From assembly GCA_047967505.1 (NCBI GenBank), contig CM106538.1: 64,000 nt of DNA, one strand, 5' to 3'. Within the stretch, counting starts at the first letter, position 1. The number at the start of each line of letters is the position of its first letter. The notes below the pieces were generated by a model. The model worked only from the letters and a program-made list of their open reading frames with translations, was not told where the DNA came from and did no database searches. Origin of the DNA: Dipteris shenzhenensis (lineage: Eukaryota). Both the position numbers and the translations under genes were made by a program. Of this stretch, positions 27,835 through 60,820 are shown piece after piece.

Positions 27835-28983
27835 TGTGACGCTCCAATTTTGTATATGAAATATTTTGGAGTATATATCACAGATAGTGTTCAAAAAGGA
27901 TGGTTTTGATGTTTTAAAGGTTTTGGGAAAGTTTGGTGTTGGTCGAAAAATTTTGGTTTTTGTCCATTATGGTGTCGGCTGGATTTTGCGGCTTGATTTG
28001 AGTTGGTTAGAGAAATAATTTGAAGAAACTCTATATGAGAGAGTTTTAGATTTTGTTGAGTAGAAAAACTTTGTCCTGGTGAAAAATTTGTGGTTCACTC
28101 GTTTGCATGCCTGTATGGAGGTCAGAAGTTGCTAACAAAGTGGTTTTGAGCTAAAAGTGCATCTAGATTTCCGTGTCAAGAGTTGCAGGCATTAGACGGA
28201 GGTCGAGATGGAAGAGTTAGCCATGAAAGGTCAAATGCAAAAGGGAAAGAAGAGGGTCCGATCTTCGAGATGAGCTATTGAGCTTGTCCATTGGATCTAC
28301 GAGGCAGGCGTGGTGATGCTCCGAACAGGGCTGTTTTCATGCCTTTAAAAAACAAAAAGAAAAAAAGAAAAAAAGAGACACGTCGAGATTCCGTACGCGT
28401 TTGCTATCATAAGCGCACGCTAAAAGAAGGTGAAAAGCACACGCACGCTTTTGGAGAAAAGCTATTTTTGGCCGATTTTGGAGGCTTTTGGCCGCTTATT
28501 TTGGAGTCGTGAAAGGCTATAAAAGAAGAGGAGATCGTGAGAAGGAGAACACACAATCCAACGCATGCATATCGAGGCTGAGCGAAAGAGAAGAGAAGGC
28601 ACACATCTCGAGGTTGCTCGAGCGAAGAGAAGGCATGCATATCGAGGTGCTGCGAAAGTGACAATAGCGCACGCGAATCGAGGCAGTGCAAAGAAGAAGA
28701 TAAGATCAAGATATTTTGAGAGAGAGAGTGAGAGTGAGAGTGAGTGTGATTGAGATTTGATCATTGGATCATCTAATTTGAACATCTTCATGCGAGTGGG
28801 AGTGAGAGTGAGATATCTCGGGGGTGGACGGGTGGTATCGAGCTCCTTCACGGAGTGATTCTTCTCCAAAATTATTGTAAATACTCATCAGTTTGATTCA
28901 TACTGCAATCTTTCTTCTTGTTCATTCGTGATTATTATCTTGCTACAATTTTGATTGTGATTGTGAAAGAACGATGCGTGACA
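27835..28983 (+). repeat. 5' LTR (1149 bp)
   Basis: Direct repeat of 48265-49408 with scattered substitutions. Contains the TATA-like ctataaaag. Confidence 0.97.
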
Positions 28984-28985
28984 AG

Positions 28986-28997
28986 TGGTATCAGAGC
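28986..28997 (+). promoter_or_regulatory. Primer-binding site (initiator Met tRNA)
   Basis: TGGTATCAGAGC 2 nt after the LTR end. Confidence 0.95.
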
Positions 28998-33544: not shown

Positions 33545-33546
33545 GG

Positions 33547-33573
33547 AACACACTATTCAAAATTTTTGGACTT
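33547..33573 (+). repeat. Left TIR AACACACTATTCAAAATTTTTGGACTT
   Basis: Exact reverse complement of 48209-48235. Confidence 0.95.
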
Positions 33574-33898
33574 TCTCTCTTGGTTTGGACTTTTTTTTGG
33601 AGCATATCCTTTCCACTCAACTTCACTTAGTGAGCTAAAAAATTGGGTTTTTTGAGCACTTAATGGGTCACTTATATACAAATATGGCCTTATTAAGCTA
33701 GTAAAAAGTCAAGTGGTAACCTCTAATTTTAAAAAAAATGGCTCGCTGAAGCTATAATTCCCAAACTCATGCATGGTGCCTCCATCCAATAACTATAATA
33801 ATAATAATAGTAGTCTCCTAACTCAAGTTCAATTTTAACACTATGAAGTGAAAATATGACACCATATGAAAAGAGTTTGTTGAATTCAACATATAAGT

Positions 33899-34158
33899 GG
33901 TGTATAGATACACCATTTAAAAAAAAAAAAAGAGTTTGTTGAATTCAATACATAAGTGGTGTATAGATACACCCTTTTTTAAAAAACAAACCATACAATA
34001 AATTATCTTATTGGTGGTGTATAGATACACCATTTGTATGGAAAAAAGCATACAAAACATTATCTTATGCATCTGAATCTCGTTATTGGTGGTGTATAGA
34101 TACACCATTTGTATGGAAAAAAGCATACAAAACATTATCTTATGCATCTGAATCTCGT
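33899..34158. repeat. Left subterminal repeats carrying the palindrome GGTGTATAGATACACC (4 copies)
   Basis: Copies at 33899, 33958, 34016 and 34091. Includes a ~75-bp tandem duplication overlapping the transposase stop. Confidence 0.85.
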
Positions 34159-37100
34159 TCAGAGTCATCAGACTCATGTAATGTATTTGAGCTTGATGGG
34201 TCAAGTCTTGCCAAATGATGTTTAATATGGACACGACTTGGATCAGGGATTGTGATACATTTTTCAACATTGTATCCATGCTTCTTTTTAAAACTTCGTG
34301 TCCTCGATTTCCAACAATGAATAATGCTACTGACTTCCACCTCTGTTAATCCCTCATTATTTGGAACCCATTCACGTTTCTTTTGCAAGCATCCCTCATA
34401 GAGTTGTTTTATTGTATATCTTCTCGGGAGATTTTTTAATGGCTTTGGTTCATACCATAAAGCTGTAAATGTTATAGGAGTTCCCTTGTCATCCCTTTCT
34501 ATCTTAGTAACCTTTGCAACCCAAATTGGGCCACCTTGGTCATCCAACTCTGAACCCGGATCACATGCCCAAACTGCAACAAATAGACCCTCTTCAATCT
34601 CATTACATGGTATAAACTCTGGTAAGGGTTTGTCTCCCTTCCTGCCACAATATTTTCGAGGTAAAAGGCATTCCTCTGCTTCCTCCATATCTACTAACAT
34701 ATTTATATCCAAAGGAAAACTTGGTGACCTAGCTTGTTCCGGCCAAAAGGATTCAGAGTATTCAATGCTCATTAAGTTTTCTTGTCTTTCTAAAGATTGG
34801 ATAAGTGCTTTAGTTGATTTAATTGTCTCCAAATTCTTAGTTGATTGCTCAGGATATTTCTGCATCATACTTTGAAGATGTTTAATGAAGGCTTTCAAGC
34901 CTTTCATTTCATCTATGTCAAGTGATTTGTTTTTTGCAAGAACAAATCTAGTTTCCTCCAATGGAATTATTCGTTGTAACAAAGCATATGACTCACTCCA
35001 TAAATGATCTCCATCTACTGAGTAGTGCTTCCATTGCATCACTGGAATATTGTTATGCATGTGAAACTGAAAGTAGTGTGGATTTGTGTGTCCTATTAGG
35101 GCATCATCTCCTGTTTGTAAATGTGGCTCTATAAATGCTCTCCAATCTACCATCCTCTCTAAGATAGCCACTTCTGATTCTTCCTTACGAGAACCTCCAA
35201 TTTTTTTCCCAATTCGAAATAGCATATCCTCCATTGTCAAAACATCCATTGCCTTCAACTCACCAGAGATAACACTGAAGATTTGATCTATGTCTTCATG
35301 TGTATGGCCGACAAGAAGAAAGCCAACTTCCACTTCTTCAAATATTTTCAGACCAACCAACATAGAGCATAAAGCAAATATATATTTATTCTTGTTCTCT
35401 CTCCAATAATTATCAGCTTGTATTCGCAATGTGTTAGGCAAACATCCGCGAGCATCTCTGACCTTTCTTATTGCTTTCATGATTGATGTAACAACCTGGT
35501 TACTATCATGGTCATGCAAACTATCAATCCATACATCACAAAATATTCGGTATCCATGTACTAATACTCCACACAAGTGTGTTTTTAGTCCACGTTTGCC
35601 CTCCAATGCCGGTGGGATACGTCTATATCGTGGCAAAGTGGTTGTATTCTGGTCCATGCCATCAATGGTGATGCACATGGACTTATTGACATGTGAAATA
35701 GCTTCCTCTCTCCAAGAAGCATACAACTTTCGAGCATCCTGCACATGACGTAAATGGATTGATCGCCATTTAATATATCTTCCTCGCTGCTGCTCACATT
35801 TACTATGTTCAATGGCATTTTTTAATTCATCACATGTCTTACATTTTGACATCCTTTGCTTTGATGGTGTCTTGACATGGCAAAAATCTCTACGCCAAAT
35901 TTTGTACAAGGTTGATCGTGAAATCATGCTCTCGTCTCTGTCTTGTAAAGTTTTATTGACAGTCTCTAGGACGACCTTCTTTGGCATTGGCATTCGACAC
36001 GTCCATCTAGCATTGTTTGTTGAAGATGAGGCTGTGGTAATGCATGGTCTTCGAGAACTTGCTTTAATGTTGCGGTTGCATTTATAGTGCTTCCATGGCA
36101 TTTAAGCTTGTACGTATTTCCATGAATTGTATGAATAACTTTTTCTTTCACCTCTGCCCAGATGGTCCAATATGTGCCATGTGATAGTCCAGTTAACCAT
36201 TGATATCCTCGATTGCAAATGGGTCTCCCATTAACCATGGGTTTCAATCTAGGTTTACAGTGTCCTGTGCTCAAATCTTGATTAGTGCCTTGATGAAGAA
36301 AGCATGAAAACTCTTGAAGAAGATAGTTATGTCTATTAGGCGCTGTCTTACTCCAAATACCAAGGCGTATGGCTGCACAATCATCTTTCCCAACTTTTCT
36401 AATGCAAAGTCTCTTGCAACAAACTCGCATAAGCATCCTTTCCATATTCTCCTCGGATAGCATCACATGTCTCTTTGGTTCTGGAATTGATGCCATGATT
36501 CTTCGCCTCTTCACACTCACATACTTTCTTTTTGTAAATAGTGTCTTGCGTTTTCTAGTTGTAAGACCATCAAACCTCGAATCCATTTCCCTTGAATCTT
36601 CATCTTTATAATCAAATGCTGTGTAGGCTTGAGAATTATTTGATACCTTATAATATCTTGGAAATGGCAATCTGGTCGACATGTTCATTGATGTCAATTT
36701 GTTGCTAATGCCTCTTGAATTTTGTGGTTGAACTGTTTCTCCTTCGTAACTCAAGATTCTCCCATCTATATTCTCTGGCATGCTAGCAACAATATTCTCA
36801 GATTCTCTGCCCCTTTTGCCTTGTATTGGAGTGGTAACATCATGATCATTGTCACTAATATCATCAATTCCTGTTATTGCATCACTTATCCCATTGATCT
36901 TTGCGTGTATTTTTCTTTGTGGTCCCATCTTATTATTTTCAACACATCTTCTGTCTTTTATATCAATAAGCATGTTTGAGTCACTTGCAGCACAAGACAA
37001 GTCTTCTATACCAGTGAGCCTGTTTGAGTCACTTGCAACACAGGATAAATCTTCTATACCAGTGAGCCTGTTCGAGTCACTTGCAACACATGACAAGTCT

Positions 37101-40100
37101 TCTATACCAGTGAGCCTGTTCGAGTCACTTGCAACACAAGACAAGTCTTCTATACCAGTGAGTATATTTGAGTCACTTGCAACACAAGAAACCTTTTCTG
37201 CATCAACATCTGTTACTATAATGTCCTCGATACCTGTGAGCATGCCACTATGATACTCTTGATTACTACTATAGCTTCTTATCAATTTGGATCCCATTTG
37301 TGTTATAGTCTTTTTCTTCTGATAATATTCTGTTGTGTCTTCCATGACATTGAAGGAAACTGTCTTGGGCAAACTTGATTTCAAGAAAGCTAACCCCCAT
37401 TTACAAGTACTATGAACTTGTAGTTGAGACGTAGTATTATGGACGTCTAATTGTGAAGTACTATCCATTGCATTTTGAATGACACCTGCACTAGTCAACT
37501 TAATTATCTCCACTATACAGAGAAAACTCTGAGCATAGCCCTTAAAGTTGCCAATTGCTAAAACTTCTCCGAAGCGAGATAACATCTGTACTTTTTCCCC
37601 CTGGATATAAGTTTTCTTGATATCTTGAAAGTATGTCTTTGGAACAATTTCGTCTTGGTCCCAGAGTGTTCTGTGTGCTTGCATATCAAATATATCACAT
37701 TGTAAGATATCTCCCAATGTTTCAAAGTCTCCATGTGGATATTTTAAATGTACTTCAGGATTTACAACGTTGGTGATTATCACTACACATCTTCTCTCAC
37801 CACAACGTTGAAAATGACACACATTCATAGGATCAAGACTATGAATTCGTCCAAAAGCCACCACTTCATTCTTCTCATATAACACCACATCCATACCCTC
37901 TGTTAGGGTGAATACCTGTTTTATGTATAAAAGTAAATTAGCAACTCAAAATGAACATTTAATAAATAACCATTGAGCTTATTATTACTTAATAACTTCT
38001 ATATCAAAACTAGCAGAGAAGGCATTAACCTAAACCCTACATCCTAAACTTTAAATAATTAATACCAAAACATCTTAACCACCGTAAATCCTAAACTTTA
38101 AACATTTAATTCTTAAACCCTAAATCCTAAACCCTAAAAATATAATCATAAACACTAAACCCTAAACACTAAATCTTAAATCCTAAGCCCTAAATCCTTA
38201 ACCCTAAATACTAAACCCTAAACCCTAACCTAAAATACAATCAAAATTTTATGATTTTTCTCGATTTGTACAACATGTTAGATATACCCCCAACTCAAGC
38301 AACACGTTGGGGGGTATATCCGACCTGTTGCACAAATCTAGAATTTTCTCGATTTGTGCAACAGGTCGGATATACCCCCCAACCTGTTGCTCAAGCAACA
38401 GGTTGGGGGATATACCTGCAACCTGTTGCTTAAGCAACAGGTTGGGGGGTATATCCAACCTGTAGCACAAATCGAGAATTTTCTCGATTTGTGCAATAGG
38501 TTGGATATACCCCCAACCTTGTTGCTCAAGGTTGGGGGGTATATCCTACCTGTTGCACAAATCGAGAATTTTTTCGATTTGTGCAACAGGTTGGATGTAC
38601 CCCCCAACCTGTTGCTCAAGCAACAGGTTGGGGGATATACCCACAACCTGTTGCTTAAGCAACAGGTTGGGGGGTATATCCAACCTGTTGCACAAATCGA
38701 GAATTTTCTCGATTTGTGCAAGAGGTTGGATATACCCCCAACCTTGTTGCTCAAGGTTGGGGGGTATATCCTACCTGTTGCACAAATCGAGAATTTTCTC
38801 GATTTGTGCAACAGATTGGATATACCCCCCAACCTGTTGCTTGAGCAACAGGTTGGGGTATATCCAACTTGTTGCATGAATCAAGTTGGATATACTCCAA
38901 CATGTTGCACAAATCGAGAATTTTCTTGATTTGTGCAACAGGTTGGATATACCCCCAACCTGTTGCACAAATCAAGAAAATTCTCGATTTGTGCAACATG
39001 TTGGAGTTACTCCCCAACCTGTTGCTTGAGCAACAGGTTGGGGGGTATATCCGACCTGTTGCACAAATCAAGAATTTTCTGGATTTGTGCAACATGTTGG
39101 ATATACCCCCCAACCTGTTGCTTGAGCAACAGGTTGCGGGTATATCCCCCAACCTGTTGCTTGAGCAACAGGTTGGGGGGTATATCCGACCTGTTGCATA
39201 AATCGAGAAAATTTTCGATTTGTGCAGCAGGTCGGATATACCCCCAACCTGTTGCTTAAGCAACAGGTTGGGGGTATATCTAACATGTTGCACAAATCGA
39301 GAAAAATCATAAAATTTTGATTGTATTTTAGGGTTAGGGTTTAGGGTTTAGTATTTAGGGTTAAGGATTTAGGGCTTAGGATTTAAGATTTAGTGTTTAT
39401 GATTATATTTTTAGGGTTTAGGGTTTAGGATTTAGGGTTAAAAATATAGGGTTTAGGGTTTAGATTTTAGGGTTTATGATTATTGTTTTAGGGTTTAGGA
39501 TTTAGGTTTTAAGGTTTAGTATATAAGATCATGAGCTTAGAGTGTAGAATCTAGGGTTTAGAATTGAGAATTAGGTTTTAGAATTTAAGTTATAGGGATT
39601 AGGATTTAAGGTTTAGGAATTATAACTATTATATAAGTTTAAGAGCTTAGATTATATAACCTAAGATTTAGGAAACTTTAGGATTTAAGATTTAGGGTGT
39701 AAGATTTAAGATATATAGACTATATAAAATATGCATTCTAAAGTATTTAGTTTAGATATATATAGACTATATGTTATATGCTTTCCAAAGTGTTTTGTTT
39801 ATAGGTATGATACATTGCAAAGGCTTTACTTTAAGTAAGTATAAGTCTACCTAGTCAAAGTAGGATCAAAGTATCCTACTGATTAGGGACAAGCACATAG
39901 GCTAAAAGCACACCGATTCATATTTTTTTACATTCATGCTGCATGGTGTATCAAAAGGTACGATCCTTTGCAAAGGCTTTACTTTAAGTAGTTACAAGCC
40001 TACCTACTCAAAGTATCCTACTGATTAGGAACAAGTACATAGGCTAAAAGCACACCGATTCGAAGAAGTGATGTATGCACACTGATTAGGAAGAAGTGCA

Positions 40101-41693
40101 TGGTGTATGAGAAGAAATGAAAAAGTATTTGATAAGAAATATTCGAAGAAATATATATTCCATATCATGGACATTCTAAGAAATATGTATTCCATATCAT
40201 GGATACCATGGATATCTGGTGCTTGCTAAAGTAAAAAAAAATGATATGGATGCAATGATAATGTAGTCTTCTAGATTCTATGGTTTTAAATACCTACCTT
40301 ACAAATACATTATCTAATTTTGCATTCTTTCGACTAACCAACAAGTATTATACACATGGAATCATGGATATCTGATGGTTACTAAAGTAAAAAAATGATA
40401 TGGATGCAATGATAGTGTAGTCTTCTAGATTCTATGGTTTTAAATAACTACCTTACAAATACATTATCTAATTTTTCATTTTTTGACTAACTAACAAGTA
40501 TTATACATATGGAATAAAAGCATACATGCTAAAAGTAAGTGTGTAAATTTTAATATTTTCTAAATTTTAAAATTAATTTAATTCTTTTATTGACTACTTT
40601 TTAAAATTGAAAGGTTATTAGTATATAATCTACATAATTTTAAATGTTATTAATGTATAATATTAATTATTTATATATTTATTTAAATTTATATAATAAT
40701 TAATTTATATTTATATTAGTTTTTAAGTTAATAATGTATAGAAGAGCAATATATTCACTAATTCTTCATTGTTTTAAGACTAAGTATTATATAAAGCACA
40801 TATGCTAGAAGATCTCCTTTCAATTTTTTTCTTAAATTAATGTATTTATATATTTATTTATATAATAATTATATAATATTTATATTAATTTATAGATTAA
40901 TAATATATATTTTTAGTAAAATTATATTTTAACATTAGTTAATAAAAATTTAATTAATTATATTATGGGGTAAAAATATTATAAATGGATTTCTTATATT
41001 AATAAAGTGTAGTGAGAAGAGTTTTTTGAAAAGATTTATGATTGAATTTTGTTTTGAAGTTGTTGCGTACGCAATAGGTAGGACATTTGAGTGGTTTTGA
41101 GATTGATAGAGATATTTGTAATAACGTGTAGTGAGAAGAGTTTTTTGGAGGATTTGTGGTAAAATTTTGTTTTGAAGTTGTTGCGTACGCAATAGGTAGG
41201 GAGGTTTGAGTGCTTTTGAGGTTGAGAGAGAAATGTGTTATAGATTTTTTTTTTTTTAAAAGGAGTTTTTTGGAGAGATTTATGATTGAATTTTGTTTTG
41301 GAGTTGTTGCGTACGCAATAGGTAGGGAGGTTTGAGTGGCTTTGAGGTTGAGAGAGAAATTTGTAATAGATTTTTTTTTTTGGTTGATGAGTTTTTTTGA
41401 GAGATTTATGATTAAATTTTGTTTTGAAGTTGTTGCGTACGCAATAGGTAGGGTTTGAGTGTTAAATTTTGTTTTGAAGTTATTGCGTATGCAATAGGTA
41501 GGGAGGGGTTGTGAGAGTTTGAGTTAAAGAGGAAAATTTATGGAAAAAAAGATTTAATGCTAAAATGGTTTTTTAAGTTGTTGCGTACACACAAGTTTTT
41601 TAGAAAAAAATCGGATTTGAAAAAAAATTCAAATTTATAAAAACTTGATTCTTAGAAGTTCTTGCGTACGCAACAACTCACCTCTTGCATCAT
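34140..41693 (-). CDS. DDE/DDD transposase gene (Sola-like/DUF7869-like core). Predicted exon 1 41693-41682 (MMQE), exon 2 from 37915; one frameshift near 35990
   Basis: Core motifs: CKTC, ITIDGMDQ, LRIQADNYWRENKN, FLLVGHTHEDIDQIFS. The N-terminal ORF (37894-35966) has Tnp1/EnSpm-like VAFGRIHSLDP domains and a CCKRLC...PICNR Cys region. Splice signals: AG|GTGAGT donor at 41681, CTAAT branch and CAG acceptor at 37916; the splice is in frame. Confidence 0.85.
36975..37190 (-). repeat. Coding 48-bp (16-aa) tandem repeat LTGIEDLSCVASDSNR, ~4.5 copies
   Basis: gagtcacttgca recurs every 48 bp and stays in frame in ORF 35966-37894. Confidence 0.92.
38027..38233 (+). repeat. Degenerate plant telomere-type repeats (CCCTAAA)n
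   Basis: Runs of taaaccc/taaatcc/taaacac. Confidence 0.85.
38113..39440. repeat. ~1.3-kb fold-back (inverted-repeat arms) filled with nested palindromic units
   Basis: Arm ~38113-38290 is the reverse complement of ~39270-39440. The interior is built from ACCTGTTGCTYRAGCAACAGGT and TGTTGCACAAATCGAGAATTTTCTCGATTTGTGCAACA units joined by GGGGGTATATCC/GGATATACCCCC. Confidence 0.92.
39327..39710 (+). repeat. Degenerate plant telomere-type repeats (TTTAGGG)n
   Basis: Runs of tttaggg/tttagga that decay with distance from the fold-back. Confidence 0.85.
39800..40510. repeat. Two local tandem duplications (~120-150 bp each)
   Basis: ~39805-39920 repeats at ~39957-40060; ~40207-40360 repeats at ~40362-40514. 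Confidence 0.75.
41010..41680. repeat. AT-rich ~120-bp tandem array, each unit with TGTTGCGTACGCAATA
   Basis: Motif at 41061, 41179, 41305 and 41431, with variants at 41481, 41579 and 41660. Confidence 0.9.
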
Positions 41694-41789
41694 TTTGAAA
41701 ATTTTTGCGAATCCTGCAACAGGTTGATGAGAGAAGAGAAGCGTGGAGTGTAAACGAATGATCTTTGAATGAAAGAGAGAATGAAGAAT

Positions 41790-41885
41790 GTTCTACTTAT
41801 AGTGAACCTAAAAGAACTAAAAAAACCTTAAAAACTAAAAAAAGCGGACTTGACCTAAAAGCTATCCATTTCCTATAAAACTCTA
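41790..41885. promoter_or_regulatory. Candidate bidirectional promoter of the DNA transposon
   Basis: Plus-strand TATAAAA at 41874-41880 and minus-strand TATAAG at ~41796-41801. Each is followed by a pyrimidine-rich leader and a splice donor (41964 plus; 41681 minus). Confidence 0.65.
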
Positions 41886-41963
41886 CTTCTCCTCATTCTG
41901 TCTCACAACTCTCTTATTCTCTTTCACAACTCTCTCCTGGAGCTCCACCACCTCTCCACTCAG

Positions 41964-43832
41964 GTACTCCCTCCCTCCCTCTTCTCCAACTTCCTCTCTC
42001 CCCTCCCCTTCCCGTCCCTTCCCCTCTCCTCCCGCTTCTCCCCTCCCTTCCCTTCCCCCTTCTCCTCTCCTCCCTCCCCAAGGCCCCTTCCCTTCCCATT
42101 GCCTGCTCCCTCCTCCTTCCGTCCCCTTCCTTCCCTTCCCCCTGTCGTCGCTACCCCGCTCCCACCCCCCTCCGCCCCCCTTCCCTCTTCTCCGCCCTTC
42201 CCACTCCCCTCCCTCCCTCCGTCCCGCCCTCCGCCGCACCCCCCTCCTGCCCTGTCGTTGACCCTTTGCCCCCCCTTCCCTTCGCCCTCCCCTCCGTCCC
42301 TCCCTCCCTGCCGCCCTCCCCCCCTCCGCCTCCCCCTTTCCTCCCCTCCGCCCCCAAGCCCCCCCTTCCCTTCGCCCTCACCCCCGTCCCTCCCTCCCTG
42401 CCGCCCACCCACCCTCCCCCCCTCCGCCTCCCCCTTTCCTCCCTCCGCCCCCAACCCCCCGCCCCCTCCCGCCCTCCCCACGCCCCCCCCCGCCGGCGCG
42501 CCCGCCCCCTTCCGTCGTCGGAAGGGGACGGGCGCACCGGGGGGGGGGCGTGGGGAGGGCGGGAGGGGAGGGGAGGGGGGCGGGCGTGCCGGGAGGGGGG
42601 GTTGGGGGCGTGGCGAGGGCGGGGCGGGCGCGCCGGGAGGGGGGCTGGGGGCTGAGGGAGGGGGGGGTGTGGGGAAGGGGAGGGGGGGCAAGGGCGCCCC
42701 CCCCCCACCTGTTGCGCACGCAACAGGTGGGGGGGGGGCGCCCTTGCCCCCCCTCCCCTTCCCCTCGCGCCCGCCCCCCCTCCCCTCCCGCCCTCCCCAC
42801 GCCCCCCACCGCGCACGGGGGGGGGCGTGGGGAGGGGGGGAGGGTCGGGCGTGGGGGGGGCGGGAGGGGAGGGGGGGCGTGGGTGGGGCGGGGGGCGTCG
42901 CGAGGGCGGAGGGGGGGCGGGCGCGCCGGGAGGGGGGGCTGCGGGGGGTGGGGAAGGGGAGGGGGGCGAGGGCGCCCCCCAACCTGTTGCGTGCGCAACA
43001 GGTGGGGGGGTCAATCCCCCCCACCTGTTGCGCACGCAACAGGTGGGGGGGCGGCCCCCCCCACCTGTTGCGTGCGCAACAGGTGGGGGCTTCCCCCTCC
43101 CCTCCCGCCCTCCCCACGCCCCCCACCGCGCGCCCGCCCCCCTTCCGGACGGAAGGGGGCCCGCCCCCCCCTTCCGAACGGAAGGGGGGGCGTGGCGTGG
43201 GGGGCGCGGGAGGGGAGGGGGGGCGTGGGTGGGGCGCGGGGGGGCGTGGCGAGGGCGGAGGGGGGGCGGGCACGCCGGGAGAGGGGGCTGTGGGAGGCGG
43301 GGTGTGGGGAAGGGGAGGGGGGCGAGGCGCCCCCCAACCTGTTGCAACAGGTGGGGAGCTTCACCCCACCCGCCCCCCTTCCCTCCCATCCGCCCATCCC
43401 TCCCGCCTTCCCCTTCCCTCCCCCAACCCCTCCTTCCCGCCCCCCGCGCGCCTGTCCCTCTCCCCTCCGCCCCCACGTGCCCTCCCCTCCGCCCCGTTCC
43501 CTCCCCTCCAACCCTCGCACACCCCCGTCCTCCCCACGCCCCCGCGCGCGCGTTGAGAGGGGGGTTGGGGGCGGAGGGAAGGGGGGGTGGGGGAGCGCGA
43601 GAAAGGGAGGGGGGCATCGATGCCCCCACCTGTTGCGCACGCAACAGGTACCCCTCGCCCCCCTCCGCTTCCCTCCGCCCGCCCGACCCCCGCTCCTTCC
43701 TTCCCTTGCCCCTCCCCTTCCCTCACCACATGCACACACACGTGTGGAGAGGGAAGGGGAGGGGCAAGGGAAGGGGTGTGGGGAAGGAGCAAGGGGGAGG
43801 AGGGCGGGCGGAGGGAAGAGGTGGGCGTGGGT
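41964..43832. repeat. Extremely GC-rich low-complexity tract with G/C runs and embedded palindromes (predicted 5'-UTR intron)
   Basis: Alternating C-rich and G-rich blocks. ACCTGTTGCGYRCGCAACAGGT cores at 42710, 42985, 43026, 43066 and 43631. CCCTTCCG..CGGAAGGG hairpins near 42516, 43150 and 43178. Confidence 0.9.
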
Positions 43833-44012
43833 GATTAAAATAAACTAACTAATTAAAATAAAATAATTTAAAAAAATATTTTATTTTAAAAATTAAAAAT
43901 AAATAAAACTTAAAAAATATTTAATTAAAAATTTATTTAATATTTTGAGTTTGAAAATCATTGTATTTCTCATTTTTTATTTTTGATTGTTTTTCAGAAA
44001 ACTATAGCTTTC

Positions 44013-47000
44013 ATGGCTTCCAGTTTTGGTTCCAAGGTGTCTTTCAAATACCTTGAACATGCTTGGTATTTTATGGAGCGGAAATCAAAGTATTTTTTGG
44101 TGATCACTTCAGAGAACATATCAAGCCCGAAATATTCTGCAGAGGCAGTAAGAAATGGTGGCATGGTATCAAACATCAATATTAAAGAAAACAATTTAAT
44201 AGAAATTGTGTGCCAAGGAAAGAATGACGAGGTGGTTTACAAGTTACGAGTTACTCCGAAGCACTTCTTGAAACCGTTACCAGATTCAATTGAGGGATCC
44301 CAAGAATTACTTAATGCCTTAGAAGCATTGAAGAAAATGTGGGATGCATTTCCAAGTGGTGGTGTTGAACCTTCAGGGGCATTAATTATGCCATCTATTC
44401 AAGTACCGTCAATATCTGTGGCGGTAACTCCGATAACTCCAACAAGTGTAACTACAGTATCTCCAACTGTACCTATGCCATCGACTGCTGCAACTACAGG
44501 AACAAGAAGGAGTGATCGTGGAGTAGACTCAAGTGCTATAGCTATTCCTAGAAAGAGAGCAAAAATAACTCCTACTCCACGTGGAGATCGCTCAAGTGCA
44601 GGCTATTTAAAACCTGGCGAAAAATTGGATAGCGATGAAGAGAAAGATCAGCAAGAAGAAGATACAAGTCTCGAAGACTTTTCTATAAGTGTGGCGGACT
44701 TACATCCTCCAGAGGATGAGGGATACATTTGGGGATTTTCACAATTCAGCGTGGCCACAATGCTTATTGATCGAGCTTCATTGTTCACAAATCAAAGAAA
44801 GCTCGATAAGATATTTGCACGCAAATTGTATGAAGATACAAGGAAAACAAGAACTCCCGTTGCCACTAATATCACTCTTCGTCCTATGGCGTTTAAGAGA
44901 CTTCAAGAAGATGATCCCACATTGCCTGATGTCACATTTCAAAAGCGCGTGGACTTTCTTGATGCTTTTGAGAACTTTAGAAAGAGTGACTTTGTTCGTG
45001 GAGAGGCTTTGTATCAAAGCCGATATGGGAGTGACATCGAGAAGAGATACATGCTGGCAAAGAATAGATTCTTAGAAAGATGTAGGTTTGAGCCCATTGA
45101 TGGGCAACACTTTTGTGAGGCTTGCAGGATCGCCCTTGATGAGGGAAGAAAAGGAAACTTGCCACAGATTGAGTGGATGGAAAAGTTTCAACGGGTCATT
45201 TGTCATATATGCATATTTAATGATGACTCGAAGTACATTCTAGAATCAGAGAGGCTGAACTCTGCTCCATTTAGGTTGAAAAAAAGCTCTTCTCTTTCTG
45301 AGATCTTGATAAAGGCAAGGGAGTTATGGATGGGCTGTGGAAAGCCACAAACAGTGAAGGGCAGGAGACCTACATCAGAGTACATGACAAAGAGGACTCG
45401 GTTCTATAGATGCTTGAAAGGTGTTGTAAGCAATACGCAAGGCATACCAGGTAACAAGGTTGAGGCAAAGGATTTGAACACCGCTGTTGCAAGATATAGG
45501 GATGTTACCTGCATTGTCTTCCGTGAGGAATCAGTGTTTCAGAGCATCGTGGATGTTTGCCAAGCATATGAAACAGGAAAGATATCCTTTGAGGCACCAG
45601 AGCACATTGCAACTCAGAGGAAAGAAATAAAGAAACCGATGTCTATTGTTTGGTGGAGAGCTTTAAGGTTTGTTCCAGATGCAATAACAGAAGAAGTATG
45701 CAAGAAGATCCTAAGTGGTGACTGCTTCTTTGGAAAGAAGAGCAAGCATAGCAACTTAGATGAAGTGGTCACCCGAATGATTCAAAGTGAGGCTGCTCTC
45801 TCGGCACTATTATTTTTATTGAAATCTGATGATGAGTTAGCTGGCAAGTCAATTGATGTGGATAAGAAGAAAGCACTTAGCCTAGGTCAACTCCTTGATA
45901 AAACATGGGCTAGAAAGTGGTTGGCTTCAATGGATGCAGATGCCACACCAACAAAGGATCTAAGAGCTAAAATGCCAAAGGTTGTTGAGACAGAATATAT
46001 GGACATTAAGAAAAAGGCCTTGCAGTCCAGTACGCAAGGTAGAGCAATTGGTGGTTTAGATGATGGTTCTTCATTCAGCTTCTCTTATGATATCCTGCTA
46101 TCAGAGAATGATACAAAATTTGCACACATCAATGGCATTGATACGGAGCATTTCATAACAATGAGCGGTCATGCTTGGGAGAAGCCATGCGTATTTTTCA
46201 TAAATGAATTGCAAGACCTTGCAGTGTCACAGATAGTTGAACTTGTGCGGTTTATTGTTGAAGGTCCTATGGCAGATAAGAAAAGATCAACGTTGGTCCT
46301 GTTCGTGACAGAATCACAAAGGGATGCCCTATATGCGAGTTTGACATCTTCATTTGGGTATTTACTTTCAAAAGTATACCATGGTATAGTCCTGCGTAAT
46401 CATATGACTGTCTTGGAAGGCACTGCCATTCAAGTCTTGCAGCCTTTCTTGATGTGCTTCTTATCGAGGGGTGGTGGTAATCTAATCCAAACTCCTTTAA
46501 GGACTCTCGAGCTTCATTACTTTGAGGACCATAAGGTTAAGCTTGATGCAGCAATGGTGGATTACAGAAAGCCGATGGATCCTGATGTGATACTAGAGAT
46601 GACAAAGAATTTATTGAATGATGGGTGGGAAGTAGCATTGTATCGAATGGGTTTTGCTGCTGAGAAATTGCTACGGCAAGGTAAAAATGTAAATGTTATT
46701 GATACCCCCCATCAAATTGAGTTCTTTGACACATATTACAGTTGCACTACTTTCTTTGAGGAGGAAAATGTCAAAGAAGAGGGTAGTGAGTCTGAGGGTG
46801 ATGATTCTAGCTCAGGTGATGATGAGGATGAAAGCTCTGCATCCGATGACTTACGGCAAGAAGAAATCCGCACAAAGAATAAGGGTGATCAATTGTCAAC
46901 TAGAGTCAAGGAGGTTCCACTCATCATACGGGAAGGTTCACGGCAACAAGAAGTTACAGTAGTACAGCACGTCACAGGTAAAGGTAAGGCTAAAGAGGTG

Positions 47001-47417
47001 GAAGCACTTCCCTTAAAATTAAAAGTGAGAAAGGCACCCTTGATCTTGGATGAAGGACAGGCAAGTGGATCGATCTTGGGTGAAGGACAGGCAAGTGGAT
47101 CAAGCAAGGAAGCCTTACTCAAAGAAGGTATGGACGAGGCAAAGCATGACCAGGAGGAGTTACCAGGAGGCATAGATGGTTCTTCAACCATGACCTTACA
47201 GACTCCAGAGCAGCCTACTAGTCAGGAACCTAGTAGCCAGGTCCCTACTTACCAAGAACTTGGTCATGAGACTCTAGAGCAGCCTACTAGTCAGGTGCTT
47301 GGAACTGAAGAGCAAACTAGTAAGGACCTTGCTACTGAGACTCCAGTCTTAGAGCAGCCTATTAGTCAGGACCCTGGTAGTCAAGGGCCTGGCATTGAGG
47401 ACATTGGTACTGAGTAA
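44013..47417 (+). CDS. Intact ~1134-aa transposon-borne protein: ParB/Sulfiredoxin-like domain, degenerate N4/N6 DNA-MTase-like domain and acidic repetitive tail
   Basis: Uninterrupted 3.4-kb ORF; first ATG at 44013 just after a polypyrimidine-CAG acceptor (43997). NQRKLD..FARKLYE..NITLRP..FEPIDGQHFCEA (DGQH at 45099-45110). The MTase-like pattern spans ~46119-46730. Domain calls are by eye. Confidence 0.85.
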   Translation: MASSFGSKVSFKYLEHAWYFMERKSKYFLVITSENISSPKYSAEAVRNGGMVSNINIKENNLIEIVCQGKNDEVVYKLRVTPKHFLKPLPDSIEGSQELLNALEALKKMWDAFPSGGVEPSGALIMPSIQVPSISVAVTPITPTSVTTVSPTVPMPSTAATTGTRRSDRGVDSSAIAIPRKRAKITPTPRGDRSSAGYLKPGEKLDSDEEKDQQEEDTSLEDFSISVADLHPPEDEGYIWGFSQFSVATMLIDRASLFTNQRKLDKIFARKLYEDTRKTRTPVATNITLRPMAFKRLQEDDPTLPDVTFQKRVDFLDAFENFRKSDFVRGEALYQSRYGSDIEKRYMLAKNRFLERCRFEPIDGQHFCEACRIALDEGRKGNLPQIEWMEKFQRVICHICIFNDDSKYILESERLNSAPFRLKKSSSLSEILIKARELWMGCGKPQTVKGRRPTSEYMTKRTRFYRCLKGVVSNTQGIPGNKVEAKDLNTAVARYRDVTCIVFREESVFQSIVDVCQAYETGKISFEAPEHIATQRKEIKKPMSIVWWRALRFVPDAITEEVCKKILSGDCFFGKKSKHSNLDEVVTRMIQSEAALSALLFLLKSDDELAGKSIDVDKKKALSLGQLLDKTWARKWLASMDADATPTKDLRAKMPKVVETEYMDIKKKALQSSTQGRAIGGLDDGSSFSFSYDILLSENDTKFAHINGIDTEHFITMSGHAWEKPCVFFINELQDLAVSQIVELVRFIVEGPMADKKRSTLVLFVTESQRDALYASLTSSFGYLLSKVYHGIVLRNHMTVLEGTAIQVLQPFLMCFLSRGGGNLIQTPLRTLELHYFEDHKVKLDAAMVDYRKPMDPDVILEMTKNLLNDGWEVALYRMGFAAEKLLRQGKNVNVIDTPHQIEFFDTYYSCTTFFEEENVKEEGSESEGDDSSSGDDEDESSASDDLRQEEIRTKNKGDQLSTRVKEVPLIIREGSRQQEVTVVQHVTGKGKAKEVEALPLKLKVRKAPLILDEGQASGSILGEGQASGSSKEALLKEGMDEAKHDQEELPGGIDGSSTMTLQTPEQPTSQEPSSQVPTYQELGHETLEQPTSQVLGTEEQTSKDLATETPVLEQPISQDPGSQGPGIEDIGTE

Positions 47418-47559
47418 CATGTTGGCTAACGGCTTTGTAATCACAAGTTTTGAACTTCTATGTAAAGCTAATATCTAATGAAAAGTTTACTACTTTTTTT
47501 ATTTCTTTACTCTCATTATTATGTATAAAGATTGTTTATGAGGGCCATTTTATACTTAA

Positions 47560-48135
47560 CGGTGTTTTTTAATACCAAGTGTGGTGTATATGTACACTAC
47601 TTACACATAAAAGGATTTATCTACACTACCTTTCTAAGGGCTTTATGTACACCACCTTTCTAAAAGAAATGGTGATAAAGGTGTGTGCACACCACTTATA
47701 CATAAAGGTGTTTATTTACACCACCTTTCCAAGAGAATTGGTCATGTATTGGTCATCTATTGATGTTCTTACGTGATTATGAAGATGTTTATGTAGACCA
47801 CTTTGTAAGAGAATTGGTCATCTATTATTGGTCATGTATTGATGTTCTTAGGTGATAGTTGCTCAATTCACAAGAAGTTATAAAGATGTTTATGTAGACC
47901 ACTTTGCAAGAGATTTTTGTGAAGTTATGAAAATGTTTATGTAGACCCCTTTGTAAGAGATTTGGTTATGCATTGATTTTTGTGAAGTTATGAAAATGTT
48001 TATGTAGACCCCTTTGTAAGAGATTTGGTTATGCATTGATGTTCTTAGTACTTAATTATTAAATCTTTTGTTTTGAGTTGGCAAATCTAGTTCAAAATCA
48101 TTAAATCTTTTGTTTTGAGTTGGCAAATCTAGTTA
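47560..48135. repeat. Right subterminal tandem repeats of the DNA transposon
   Basis: Repeated atgtttatgtagacc.cttt units, a duplicated aaatcttttgttttgagttggcaaatctagtt, and GGTGT-N6-ACAC[C/T] palindromes at 47583 and 47707. Confidence 0.75.
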
Positions 48136-48208
48136 AAAAACAACATTACTAGTATATTCAAAATTTTTGGACTGTTTTTTAGTCCATTTCTCAAATTGGA
48201 CTTTACAC

Positions 48209-48235
48209 AAGTCCAAAAATTTTGAATAGTGTGTT
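48209..48235 (-). repeat. Right TIR
   Basis: Reverse complement of 33547-33573. A 19-bp internal inverted copy lies at 48155-48173. Confidence 0.95.
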
Positions 48236-48250
48236 GAGGATAGAGTTCCT

Positions 48251-48264
48251 GAAGAGGGAACGGA
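48251..48264 (+). promoter_or_regulatory. Polypurine tract of the Gypsy element
   Basis: GAAGAGGGAACGGA immediately before the 3' LTR TG. Confidence 0.9.
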
Positions 48265-49408
48265 TGTGACGCTCCAATTTTGTATATGAAATATTTTGGA
48301 ATATATATCACATATAGTGTTCAAAAAGGATGGTTTTGATGTTTTGAAGGTTTTGGGAAAGTTTGGTGTTGGTCGAAAAATTTTGGTTTTTGTCCATTTT
48401 GGTGTCGGCTGGATTTTGCGGCTTGATTTGAGTTGGTTAGAGAAATAATTTGAAGAAACTCTGTATGAGAGAGTTTTAGATCTTGTTGAGTAGAAAAACT
48501 TTGTCCTAGTGAAAAATTTGTGGTTCACTCGTTTGCATGCCTGTATGGAGGTTAGAAGTTGCTTACAAAGTGGTTTTGAGCTAAAAGTGCATCTAGATTT
48601 CCGTGTCAAGAGTTGCAGGCATTAGACGGAGGTCGAGATGGAAGAGTTAGCCATGAAAGGTCAAATGCAAAGGGAAGGAAGAGGGTCCAATCTTCGAGAT
48701 GAGCTATTGAGCTTGTCCATTGGATCTACGAGGTAGGAGTGGTGATGCTCCGAACAGGGCCGTTTTCATGCCTTTAAAAAAAAAGAAAAAAAAAAGAAAA
48801 AAAGAGACACGTCGAGATTCCGTACGCATTTGCTATCCTAAGTGCACGCTAAAAGAAGATGAAAAGCACATGCACGCTTTTCGAGAAAAGCTGTTTTTGG
48901 CCGATTTTGGAGGCTTTTGGCTGCTTATTTTGGAGTCGTGAAAGGCTATAAAAGAAGAGGAGATCGTGAGAAGGAGAACACACAATCCAACGCACGCATA
49001 TCGAGGCTGAGCGAAAGAGAAGAGAAGGCATGCATCTCGAGGTTGCTTGAGCGAAGAGAAGGCACGCATATCGAGGCACTGTGAAAGTGACAATAGCGTA
49101 GGCGAATCGAGGCAGCGCAAAGAAGAAGATAAGATCAAGATATTTTGAGAGTGAGAGTGAGAGTGTGATTGAGATTTGATGATTGGATCATCTGATTTGA
49201 ACATCTTCATGCGAGTGAGAGTGAGAGTGAGAGTGAGATAGCTCGGGGGTGGACGGGTGGTATCGAGCTCCTTCACAGAGTGATTCTTCTCCAAAATTAT
49301 TCTAAAGACTCATCAGTTTGATTCATACTACAATCTCTCTTCTTGTTCATTCGTGATTATTATCTTGCTACAATTTTGATCGTGATTGTGAAAGAACGGT
49401 GCGTGACA
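48265..49408 (+). repeat. 3' LTR (1144 bp)
   Basis: Direct repeat of 27835-28983, followed by TSD GGAAG. Confidence 0.97.
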
Positions 49409-49615
49409 GGAAGTCATGGTTGCCTTGACATTGTTCTAGCACAATAATATGAGAGTTTCTCTAAATAATAAGAACATTTGTGGGCTACAGATTGGATGCA
49501 ATACACATGGTTGACACAATGTAGGTCAATCAAAATTTCAAAGCTGTCTTGGCCTATCTTTTTTCCTCGCAAATCATTATGTTGGTACATTTACAGTTGC
49601 ATCTTATGAAATTTG

Positions 49616-57357: not shown

Positions 57358-59815
57358 TCGAGAACTAACACTAATATCATCAAAAGATAATCTAAGATTT
57401 TTTCTAAGTACCTTCAAATATTTAACTGAGTCATCCAAAAGGTGTTGAAAAGTTTCTATGCAAAGTGCATGGCTTTGAAAGTAGAAATGAAAGAGCTGGA
57501 GAAGAGGCATGAGAGAGGCATGGTGTCCAATTGCAAAAACTGGTAGGGTGAAAGAGGAGAGAGGAATTATATGATGTGCAAAAGGTTACAAGGCGTTTGC
57601 CACCTAATCACCTCATGAAGACTTAATTGTTCATCACACATATTGACAAATGAACCTCGTGGGTTGGTACATTGAGTCCCTATTTTCCTGTCCAAGGAAT
57701 AATGACTATAATTATCAAATCCCTATCTTCCTAGTCATCAAATCCCTATCGCCCTTTCTATGCATATGATTATCTCTCTCACACAATGCACAATTTATTT
57801 AACACTAGTTTGGTAGAAGGACATAAAAATGTCCTAGGATACTTTTATGTCCTCTTAACTTAGCCACTTCCTAGAATTATTCAAAAGCATCCATAAGCTA
57901 TTTTGAGGTTTTTATTATTTGCCATAATAGCTTATATGCTGAAAAAAACTTGAAATTATGATGGATTAGAACTTGCACCTATTACTTTGAGTTCTACCGA
58001 GTCAACCTAACACCAAAATCTCAAGCTGTTTCTCAGGTTTTAGATAAAATGACCATACTTCTTCATTAGAATGAGTTTTTTTAGATTTTGTAAGTTCTAG
58101 AGTCTAAGGATAACTATAACACATATGCTTAGATTGCTTTGGAGCTAGATAATTATATTTATTATGATTTATGGCCTCAACGATCATTTTAGAGAATCCT
58201 GACAGCGAGGCAAAATTTGATCTTTTGCAAACTCTTTGACATGTATAACAAGTTATACCATACTTTGCATATGTCTTGAATGGGATATTATGGAGGATCC
58301 AATAGGCCTAAAACTAAAGTTGTAGAGGACTTATCTAGAAAAATAATTGGATGTTTTTAAAAAAGAAATTTAATGTGTACTTTTTCTAATTCATTAGTAA
58401 TGCTAGGTTGATCTAAGCTTAGTTTCAAAATTGATGGAGTATAAATGTGTCATACCCTCTTTTTGATATATCCCTTTTATGAAATGTGTGGAACTTTCTT
58501 GACAGAGTGCATATATCCTTTAGAGCGATGTATAATTCAAAATATGTTCACATGAGCATGACTTTGGATGACCTTTTTGCACAATGGATTGATAACATGA
58601 ATAGATATGTACAAGGAAATTTTCCAAATGCAAAGGGAGAATTGTTACTCAAGAAGATGACAAGCACAAAGCTTCTCACCTATGGAGAAGTGGGAGAAAT
58701 TTCCCAAGCGAAGGGAATAAGGTTGGGACCGATAATTTTTTGGTGTATATTAGGGAATATGGAATATTTCATGATCTTCTATTTGAAAAATGAGAGGGAA
58801 GCACACTGTGGATCATGCTCTACAATCAATGTGTTTAATTCTTGGATATATTAGCACTTTCATGTGGGCATGTTCAGTCAATTGCATGACATAAGAATAT
58901 GCGTAAGATGAGAAGAATTGTTAAGGAGTTTCATAAAAAAATTTCCATAAAACTAAGGGCCATAGGAATGCTACTCACATTACGTAAATAAATTATATAG
59001 ATTGGACAAGCGAGGCATTGAATGCATGCTTCAAACCTTACTTGCAATTTAAGCAAATGATAAAGAATTCACTACTACTAACACCTTTCTTATTGATGAT
59101 AGTCTATTTAAGGGGGTGTGTAGCCTTTAAAAAATTGTATTATATCCATTTTGTTTTATGGTAGATGAGACTAGTGATAATGATCTTCTCCCTTATGTGC
59201 TTTTATTGCTCGAAAAGTGTAGACATAAGGAACATTAACAAGATTGATGATTATGAAAATGAGCCAATACATGTCACTCATCATTTGTATAGGTATTTCA
59301 AAGATGTAATTTTGGAACGGGAGAACTTTACTACTAAGTACCTTGGACCAATTGGCTCAAAATGAGTATTTAGTTCATGTAGTTCCACAATGAACAATCA
59401 ACAAAATCTCGAGACTCTCATGTTGCGTTTGTATGTCGTCAAGGTCGTCACTCGTCAGGAATACAGTTGCAATCAACCTTTCTTGACAGACGAAAAAGTA
59501 CCAAGGTCGACCTGCAGGCTCCCTGCAGGCCTCCCTAGGTACTTTCCCTTGAGATTTTGAAATCAAGCAGATATTGCCATTGAATGACCGGAGTGCTCCT
59601 GTGAAGTGTCACCAAATCACTACTTTTTCTGATCGCGCAATAGTTTTTGACGTAACGGGAAGAGAATCGGATTCGTCACGCCTGCCCCCGTAACCCCCTT
59701 TCGCATCTTTGATTACTGCCACTTTTCTGTATAAATAGGAACTTAGGAAGCCAGTCTTTCAAACTTGTAGCAACCTACACAGCTCCCCATCTTGTTCTTC
59801 GTCACAGCATTCAAC

Positions 59816-60352
59816 ATGTCGCACCACCACCACCACCCCGAAGAAGTGTACTATGATGAATCCTACGAAAGGACTTCCTATGAGGAAGCTCCGCCCCCTC
59901 GCTGCCATGAAGGATCTTACGACCGCTACGCCAGCCGTCCTTACGGAGAGACCTACGAGCGTGTAACAGAGGAGGAAGCCGATTACTCTCGCCGCCAGGA
60001 GAAGGGCGCGCCCTATCAGCGCAACGAGCGCCTCGGTGAGCTGGGTGCCGTTGCAGCAGGAGCATTCGCTTTGGTAAGACGATTCCAGACGTCCCTGTGG
60101 GTCGTCGTGGACGTTAGTATTTTTCCACCCTGGTTTTTAGGGGGTGATTGCGGGAAAGTCGATGAGTAATAGACGATTCTAAAACGATGTGTCGTGGTTG
60201 ATTGTGTGCAGTATGAAGGCCACAAAGCAAAGACAGATGTGGCGGATGCTGGGAAGCACAAGACAGAGGCAGAGCTGGCTGGAGTAGCAGCTCTGGGATC
60301 TGGAGGTTATGCACTGTATGAGCATCGCGAGAAGAAGAAAGCTGGCTGGTAA
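59816..60352 (+). CDS. ASR: ABA/WDS-induced (ASR-like) protein, copy 2; exons 59816-60073 and 60212-60352; 132 aa
   Basis: Same structure as copy 1. TATAAATA at ~59730, phase-0 GT-AG intron, intact frame. Confidence 0.93.
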
Positions 60353-60820
60353 AAGAAGCTGGCAGTATGCAAAGCGAGGATGCACGAGCACCACTTTTAG
60401 CTGTCCCCATGTACTTCATCCAACTAATATAATATAATAAACCTCGCTTTTGTGACATACTAAGATTTTCCCAATTCCTTTTCGAGTAACTTTTTGGCAT
60501 GCCAAAGTAGAGTTTATGGTTTTCAATCGTATGATGACTCTCGTGAGATTGAAATTGCACTATGTTGTGTTTTTAGAGGATGAGTTTGGGAATGTTCGTG
60601 GATTCATCTTGGTATATGCCAAAGTAGCGTTTGTTTTGGTCTCTCTTATTATGGGACTTGTGTGATAGAAGGGTAATGTGAGAGGGGCTTTAGGTGTTAT
60701 CATAATCTAAGGGTGAGAGGGGCTTTAAGGGTTACCATAATCTCATTTGGCAGGCCTAGTGAAATTTTTACGTTATTAAACTTAACATAAGTGTTGAAGT
60801 TATTTAAAGACAAAGCCATA

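Follow-up and report, generated by a model that had tools for sequence, protein, structure and literature searches.

A stretch of 64,000 nucleotides from contig CM106538.1 of the Dipteris shenzhenensis assembly GCA_047967505.1 (hereafter the window) carries a single-exon open reading frame (ORF), the product of which appears to combine a ParB/sulfiredoxin (Srx)-like domain with a methyltransferase-like domain. The ORF runs from stop to stop at 43941-47417 on the plus strand, with its first methionine at 44013, and encodes 1134 amino acids without an internal stop codon. The predicted protein comprises, in order, an N-terminal domain, a disordered linker, a likely ParB/Srx-like domain followed by helices, a beta-class amino-methyltransferase fold and an acidic tail. 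An original prediction, made from the sequence alone, had placed a ParB/Srx-like domain at 44740-45260 of a transposon ORF that was intact while its neighbours were broken. It had overlooked the C-terminal methyltransferase-fold domain and the carrier of the gene, a DNA transposon that is bounded by inverted repeats and has inserted into a long terminal repeat (LTR) retrotransposon (Table 1).

The outer element is a decayed 6.9-kb Ty3/gypsy chromovirus (27835-49408). Its LTRs form a 1.15-kb direct repeat with TG..CA ends and differ by 48 substitutions and three indels over 1138 aligned sites. Between them, gag, zinc knuckle, protease, reverse transcriptase, RNase H, integrase and chromodomain sequences persist in at least seven pieces, so that the contrast drawn earlier between an intact ORF and broken neighbours holds. 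Adjoining the pol stop codon (TGA, 33542-33544) is the nested DNA transposon of 14,689 bp (33547-48235), with termini that begin with AAC. The 27-nt terminal repeat has only two matches in the window at up to three mismatches (0 expected), and between its right-hand copy and the 3' LTR there are 29 nt, the last of which form the purine tract. Because perfect inverted repeats and a flanking duplication bracket the ORF, it is assigned to the DNA transposon; the description as a transposon ORF is thus borne out. At the right end, 19 nt of the terminal repeat recur in direct orientation (48155-48173), 35 nt inward of the inverted copy, so that the right terminus (48155-48235) can fold back on itself.

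Alternatively, the ORF could be an additional gene of the LTR retrotransposon itself, given that the two LTRs enclose it, that it reads in the direction of gag-pol and that it is placed 850 bp upstream of the 3' LTR, in the interval between pol and that repeat. However, the perfect inverted-repeat pair and the duplication enclose everything from the pol stop to the purine tract, the same bracket holds a DUF7869 gene on the opposite strand, and gag-pol is broken at least six times while the ORF is intact. This explanation is extremely improbable, and the ORF as an integral part of the Ty3/gypsy internal region was rejected on account of the transposon's own inverted ends and duplication. For annotation, the locus is a warning that an ORF between two LTRs need not be a retrotransposon gene.

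From left to right, the DNA transposon consists of left subterminal repeats, the minus-strand DUF7869 gene, degenerate (CCCTAAA)n repeats, a palindrome array, (TTTAGGG)n repeats, an A+T-rich stretch, a 2-kb tract of 72% G+C, the ORF and right subterminal repeats, with the DUF7869 gene (-) and the ORF (+) divergently oriented. The DUF7869 gene would encode the transposase. Its reading frame changes once near 35966-36101, unless an intron lies there, and it contains D..D..E-like blocks as well as 4.9 tandem copies of a 48-nt unit (36953-37189), which code for a repeated peptide. A PDB sequence search with this gene gave only one match, at E=1, and no named transposase family; a weak match to TNP1/En/Spm (E 0.032) fell short of the cut-off, and DUF7869 was not mentioned in the literature searched. 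The carrier is a giant DNA transposon, probably Sola1-like in type.

With ends that are perfect and a DUF7869 gene that is nearly intact, the nested element seems to have inserted more recently than the surrounding retrotransposon, which at least partly explains why the ORF is intact. In a neutral simulation at the LTR-derived rate, the ORF remained without a new stop codon with P=0.095, and when frameshifting indels were included, in an estimate based on three observed indels, it remained intact with P=0.005. At face value the latter value suggests constraint on the ORF, under the premise of equal age for the ORF and the LTRs, which the nested insertion makes unsafe. Selection as a requirement for intactness was rejected, since the younger insertion accounts for at least part of it.

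An exhaustive HMMER search of 1.84 billion representatives identified 43 related proteins at E<=0.001 (20 at E<=1e-10), most of them short fragments. Four homologues are roughly full-length, including P0020 (1488 aa), P0028 (1097 aa) and P0047 (1199 aa, a cluster mate of P0027), and the long homologues match the entire layout of the protein, from the N-terminal domain with H-G-W-W to the C-terminal domain. Only one match carries an organism name, a hypothetical protein from the lycophyte Diphasiastrum complanatum (44% identity); no named algal match was returned by the protein searches for homologues. One homologue cluster has 31 members and one protein was found on 23 contigs, which fits a repeated element. 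A word-indexed protein search with the single protein found no match, and with the family alignment it retrieved only one fragment that was already known. A motif-seeded scan of bacterial and archaeal genomes for prokaryotic relatives gave 35 pattern matches, of which none was confirmed.

The motifs on which the ParB/Srx assignment had been founded, TNQR, ITLRP and DGQH-Phe, are present in that order at 44787-45113, and the interval proposed for the domain agrees well with the core as now delimited. Motif counts refer to the 16 rows, including the present protein, that truly cover DGQH, with the misaligned fragments P0013 and P0039 excluded. DGQH is found in 12 of these rows, DSQH in two, NGQH in one and YGQH in one, so that QH is invariant (16/16), as is a cysteine five residues downstream (16/16). 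Other conserved motifs are TN[QH]R, [IL]TLRP, S/E-x-R-x-N, VVYDD..Y...S.R.N and a helix with K.R..W..G.P. The ParB/Srx superfamily has a conserved active-site arginine (Iyer et al., 2017; PMC5512222). The pocket arginine of GERR, DGQHR, DGQQR and GCHR, which contacts the nucleotide in the ParB and DndB motifs, is replaced here by phenylalanine, as the original prediction had stated, and in every one of the 16 rows QH is followed by a hydrophobic residue (F, I or V). Given that arginine occurs in none of them (0/16), the loss is a family trait rather than damage to one copy. The domain would accordingly be non-catalytic or altered.

The structural evidence is based on an AlphaFold2 model of residues 225-560 (26-row alignment), with a mean predicted local distance difference test score (pLDDT) of 75.9 and core blocks at 84-97. 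Its strands (E) and helices (H) follow as E20-23, H41-53, E62-69, a three-helix insertion, E132-138, H140-155, E169-176 and H181-197. The insertion aside, this is the ParB/Srx order of strand-helix-strand-strand-helix-strand-helix, and DGQH ends the strand after the insertion. The long insertion that had been noted earlier is confirmed at approximately 62 residues and is shorter in distant homologues. When the model was compared with the PDB by Foldseek, KorB (8qa9), ParB (7bm8) and Noc (7nfu, 7ng0) had, amid chaperonin noise, the highest probabilities but one (0.15-0.33), and the first part of the middle region co-aligned with the DNA-binding part of the truncated KorB, ParB and Noc chains (274-325 columns). 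In a viral structure library, 12 of the top 20 matches are named ParB, Spo0J, Noc, ParB/sulfiredoxin, GmrSD N-terminal or DndB-like and eight have no informative name; among the top 50, ParB/Srx-type names number 20 and other names seven. In the ESM Atlas (residues 232-440), a ParB_N (PF02195) cluster scored 0.90 and DUF6551 0.88, below DUF3723 clusters at 0.95.

Several results weigh against this assignment and the interpretation that is built on it. None of the Foldseek matches reached E<=0.001, either in the PDB (0 matches) or in the viral library (best 0.012, probability <=0.94). Pfam, NCBIfam and PADLOC profiles gave nothing relevant for the protein or for 26 family members at E<=10, and PDB sequence and profile searches found no match for the protein or the family. 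The alignment of the family by hhalign gave 0.1-0.2% against 40 of 120 P1-type ParB homologues (every third) and 2.3% against 114 DUF262 domains, recovered from bacterial genomes by motif pattern, with DGQH not aligned onto DGQQ. Since a control with two accepted superfamily members, DUF262 and P1-type ParB, gave only 1.4%, these hhalign negatives are uninformative and the test is powerless at such a distance. In addition, both structural models of this protein were built on shallow alignments (26 and 18 rows).

The resemblance could therefore be spurious, the region being a lineage-specific alpha/beta domain that carries DGQH by chance, as the uniformly negative sequence-profile tests and the lack of a Foldseek match at E<=0.001 would have it. 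This is distinctly unlikely, because the names of the sub-threshold fold matches come almost entirely from one superfamily, the strand-helix order fits, three motifs stand in the expected order, and fusions of a ParB-like domain with a methyltransferase are established in bacteria (Bce_0392; PMC5512222) and in algal transposons (PMC12477816). Thus, of the fold that had been predicted, the order of elements and the consistent naming of the matches stand, while every match is sub-threshold and the profiles are negative. AlphaFold and Foldseek, the means by which the prediction was to be checked, returned ParB/Srx proteins where they returned structural matches, and DGQH is conserved among homologues, the two points on which it had staked itself. 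A ParB/Srx-like fold of the modelled core is likely, not proven.

The C-terminal domain was modelled after residues 690-920 had been aligned with 14 fragments and the trimmed C-termini of P0020, P0047 and P0028. Its conserved blocks resemble the layout of permuted amino-methyltransferases, and the model (18-row alignment) has a pLDDT of 66.9 and a predicted template modelling score (pTM) of 0.70. Foldseek against the PDB gave nine matches at E<=0.001 with probabilities of 0.98-1.00, all of them beta-class DNA methyltransferases, including the Mbo45V Mod subunit, M1.HpyAVI, M.BceJIV and M.MboIIA; CcrM, TTHA0409, PvuII methylase, METTL3-METTL14 and MTA1 ranked next. The modelled fold is Rossmann-like with motif IV ahead of motif I, the circular permutation of the beta class. 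Motif positions were placed from the strand order of the model and the general family motifs, not by residue-level superposition. At the motif IV position the protein has NELQ, the plant-type fragments have DELQ, DELE, NQIK or YVLE, and the distant proteins have DCRR or DCRT. None of the eukaryotic amino-methylase clades of Iyer et al. (2015; PMC4738411) matches the present architecture.

An active enzyme has to be considered in this context, in which the ParB-like part would target the element and the methyltransferase domain would place N6-methyladenine or N4-methylcytosine on the element's own DNA, as has been proposed for the Ectocarpus version (PMC12477816). In favour of this, the domain folds like the beta-class DNA methyltransferases, motif IV starts with D or N in 12 of 13 rows, and both the motif I glycine and the acidic residue after strand 2 are retained in seven of eight. 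Against this, the catalytic PP(Y/F/W) of motif IV is found in 0/13 aligned rows, being replaced by NELQ, DELQ or DCRR, FxGxG is reduced to one glycine, and a whole-protein Pfam search found no match to PF01555 (N6_N4_Mtase) or PF05063 (MT-A70) at E<=10. An active enzyme is unlikely, and so, to judge from these motifs, is canonical amino-methyl transfer by this domain. Given the retained glycine and acidic residue, binding of S-adenosylmethionine (SAM) is conceivable, and the modelled domain may still hold this cofactor.

The space between the two genes contains arrays of palindromes. The half-site CAACAGGTKGG has 30 exact copies in the window (0.06 expected), all located between the genes at 38379-39271 and 42704-43635. 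The half-sites pair into 11 palindromes of 22-28 bp with the form CC[AC]ACCTGTTGC-N4-GCAACAGGT[TG]GG, one of which has no spacer. When one mismatch is allowed, the element has 49 half-sites and the other 49 kb has three. Because the motif is shared, the array at 38-39 kb and the G+C-rich tract are regarded as one system. The 1.1-kb palindrome array is flanked by an inverted pair of degenerate telomere repeats of the plant type, (CCCTAAA)n at 38114-38228 and (TTTAGGG)n at 39327-39519. The tract itself (41860-43850), directly upstream of the ORF, has a G+C content far above that of the window (approximately 40%), is open in all six frames, and passes from C-rich to G-rich blocks, among which are GC-rich forms of the palindrome; it may be a promoter island or structure-forming DNA.

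These arrays also bear on whether the gene is passenger cargo, i.e., a gene taken over from the host or left behind by a different element, without a role in the transposon life cycle. Giant DNA transposons often carry unrelated genes (PMC12477816) and the analysis covered one complete copy only. Yet the palindrome arrays are confined to the element and adjoin the gene, the homologues are multi-copy and fragmentary like transposon genes (the 31-member cluster and the protein on 23 contigs), and the two-domain architecture recurs opposite a transposase in an unrelated lineage (PMC12477816). A passenger gene is decidedly improbable.

The most likely role of the protein is that of an accessory factor that binds DNA and in which catalysis is altered or lost. 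Neither catalytic signature survives anywhere in the family, which suggests that the conserved task is DNA recognition rather than enzymology; neither a canonical CTPase clamp nor an active N6-adenine or N4-cytosine methylase would be expected. As the transposon's accessory factor, the protein would recognise the element's own palindrome arrays through its ParB-like and helical parts, as ParB does on parS. It would serve as a DNA-binding, possibly SAM- or nucleotide-sensing scaffold that marks, shields or organises its own element, either in the assembly of the transposition complex or in defence against silencing. Taken as a whole, this explanation, which combines the anatomy of the nested transposon with the accessory-factor mechanism, has a slightly better than even chance of being correct.

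To the adverse points on the fold must be added that the binding of the palindromes by this protein is pure inference, that DUF7869 is not a named transposase family, and that residues 105-162 of the methylase-like model are poor. The target duplication is GAGG on both sides, next to ends that begin with AAC; a 6-bp reading (TGAGGA) with 26-nt ends is equally possible and would be a poorer fit to Sola1. The likeness to the algal proteins discussed below rests on their described layout, not on sequence comparison.

The features of the locus are collected in Table 1. The N-terminal domain had no match in a Pfam search, and the basic stretch in the linker is a candidate nuclear-localisation signal.

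Table 1. Coordinates of the retrotransposon, the nested DNA transposon and the parts of the ParB-like and methyltransferase-like gene within the window.
Feature	Position	Strand	Basis or remarks
5' LTR	27835..28983	+	GGAAG duplication 27830-27834; primer-binding site TGGTATCAGAGC 28986-28997, tRNA-Met type
Left terminal inverted repeat, 27 nt	33547..33573	+	target duplication GAGG 33543-33546
Left subterminal tandem repeats	33956..34159		repeat scan; weak inverted similarity to right-end repeats
DUF7869 gene, presumed transposase	34140..37945	-	two overlapping frames; Pfam DUF7869 E 6.9e-52
Six 28-bp palindromes CCAACCTGTTGC-N4-GCAACAGGTTGG in 225-nt tandem units	38379..39271		motif and repeat scan
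Five palindromes with this core, four spanning 28 bp and a spacerless one of 22 bp	42704..43355		inside 72% G+C tract upstream of ORF
ParB-like and methyltransferase-like gene, putative accessory gene	44013..47417	+	ORF of 1134 aa plus stop; 43 homologues
N-terminal domain, conserved, ~110 aa, H-[GA]-W-[WY] motif	44013..44345	+	aligns with N-termini of P0020, P0023, P0047
Ser/Pro/Thr-rich linker with basic stretch PRKRAKITP at 44547-44573	44346..44720	+	composition, motif position
Likely ParB/Srx-like core, GYIWG to ESERLN	44721..45260	+	AlphaFold2 model core pLDDT 84-97, Foldseek, motif conservation
TNQR motif, 3' of first strand	44787..44798	+	TN[QH]R in 11/12 rows truly covering motif; INQR in P0030
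ITLRP motif	44871-44885	+	ORF translation
Three-helix insertion, ~62 residues, between ITLRP strand and DGQH strand	44895..45080	+	model helices 87-104, 106-113, 117-129
DGQH (45099-45110), then Phe codon TTT (45111-45113); Arg there in DGQHR/GERR families	45099..45113	+	Arg in 0/16 homologues
Middle region, mostly helical	45261..46082	+	model helices 181-295
Beta-class (circularly permuted) N6/N4 amino-methyltransferase-fold domain	46083..46775	+	model pLDDT 66.9, pTM 0.70; 9 PDB matches E<=0.001
NELQ at catalytic motif IV position, (D/N/S)PP(Y/F/W)	46203..46214	+	PP[YFW] in 0/13 aligned homologues
YRMGFAAE at SAM-binding motif I position (FxGxG), one Gly retained	46641..46664	+	model strand order
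Acidic residue D, 3' of next strand after motif I	46701-46703	+	alignment, model
C-terminal tail, acidic, low-complexity	46776..47414	+	sequence composition
Right subterminal tandem repeats	47613..48139		repeat scan
Right terminal inverted repeat, 27 nt, complementary 27/27	48209..48235	-	target duplication GAGG 48236-48239
3' LTR	48265..49408	+	purine tract 48251-48264; GGAAG duplication 49409-49413

Elsewhere in the window, a minus-strand ORF (25715-26272) has a near-threshold match to the plant ABA/WDS-induced family (24.7 bits, cut-off 25), a faint sign of plant origin. An inverted pair at 25466-26340 and 59585-60455 (86% identity, approximately 33 kb apart), with a further piece of 79% at 26614-26878 and 58949-59204, is probably two copies of another repeat family. 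Direct-repeat pairs at 7883-8372 and 11167-11634 (89%) and at 60821-61474 and 61736-62377 (84%) may represent the LTRs of further elements or tandem copies. Neither Rfam families nor tRNAs were found when the window was scanned for them.

Among known systems, the CTP-dependent clamps ParB, KorB and Noc are the best solved-structure matches by probability; in them, too, a helical DNA-binding part comes after the N-domain, and the present element has 11 palindromes of 22-28 bp near the gene as candidate parS-like sites. They differ in their arginine-rich GERRxR patch, which is absent here (0/16), and in lacking the large three-helix insertion of the present protein. No ParA-type ATPase was found in 15 ORFs scanned, chosen from 30 of at least 150 aa in the window. 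DndB and DUF262/GmrS, with the motifs named DGQHR and DGQQR, respectively, share D-G-Q-H/Q at the start of the second core helix, and viral DndB-like and GmrSD-N models are among the fold matches. However, the arginine that defines both is missing here, and the comparison with the 114 DUF262 domains gave the low hhalign value reported above.

Bacterial ParB-methylase proteins are much shorter than the present protein. Together with phage fusions of this type, they show the same domain pairing on mobile DNA, whereas their catalytic motifs are kept and nicking has been reported, as for Bce_0392 of Bacillus cereus, a ParB-methylase with nicking activity that is cited in Iyer et al. (2017; PMC5512222).

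DUF3723 (PF12520) is a conserved cargo gene of fungal Starship elements with a function listed as unknown (Gluck-Thaler et al., 2022; PMC9156397). Its clusters are the nearest in the protein-language-model comparison (0.94-0.95, 171-179 shared features; 16 of 30 matches for the ParB-like part alone), and it likewise rides giant mobile elements (PMC9156397). In contrast, HMMER against PF12520 had no match for the 26 family members at E<=10, and the literature search found no paper that joins DUF3723 and ParB. The relationship is a lead only, which could connect the family to the Starship elements. A broader reading would unite the present family, the Starship DUF3723 and cnidarian clusters in one ancient pan-eukaryotic, ParB/Srx-derived family that rides giant DNA transposons and binds their own palindromes, a eukaryotic counterpart of ParB-parS in which the nucleotide-gating arginine was lost and the methylase fold was reused non-catalytically. 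This extension is possible but doubtful; if it were true, the function of DUF3723 would become directly testable.

The closest parallels are found in algae. A literature search for ParB with DNA transposons and an accessory gene returned only two reports, both algal (PMC12477816; 10.1101/2025.02.11.637652). Sola1-1_Ec32 of Ectocarpus is 21.5 kb long, with a 4-bp duplication and AACCG termini, and proteins that pair a ParB-like part with a methyltransferase are suggested to act on the element that encodes them, by binding and modifying it (Dinatale et al., 2025; PMC12477816). Its protein has 1104 aa (1134 aa here), with the ParB-like part first and the methyltransferase later, and the gene is similarly located on the strand opposite the transposase (presumed here). 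Both elements are giant, have inverted ends with termini starting AAC and show a 4-bp duplication, on the GAGG reading of the present one. However, the ends are 27 nt here and 282 nt there (PMC12477816), motif IV is non-canonical here, neither domain is Pfam-detectable here, and the present host appears to be a land plant, the only named relative being from the lycophyte Diphasiastrum. In the red-algal Plavaka, PAG3 joins a ParB-like N-terminus to a 2-oxoglutarate oxygenase, has tandem inverted-repeat arrays alongside, and has been proposed to bind its own element (Petroll et al., 2025; 10.1101/2025.02.11.637652). The present case thus resembles PAG3 in that the accessory protein of a transposon has a ParB-like domain in its N-terminal part and inverted-repeat arrays accompany the gene, whereas the partner domain of PAG3 is an oxygenase instead of a methyltransferase fold and the transposon superfamily is another.

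Accessory genes that pair a ParB-like binder with a DNA-modifying domain have only recently been noticed, in brown, red and green algae, and the present copy extends them from algae to what seems to be a land plant. The locus also offers a compact test system, with one intact gene, a 28-bp palindrome in eleven copies beside it and perfect transposon ends. Relative to the described cases, the new features are the family-wide loss of both catalytic signatures, domains that are invisible to profile libraries, and an apparently land-plant host.

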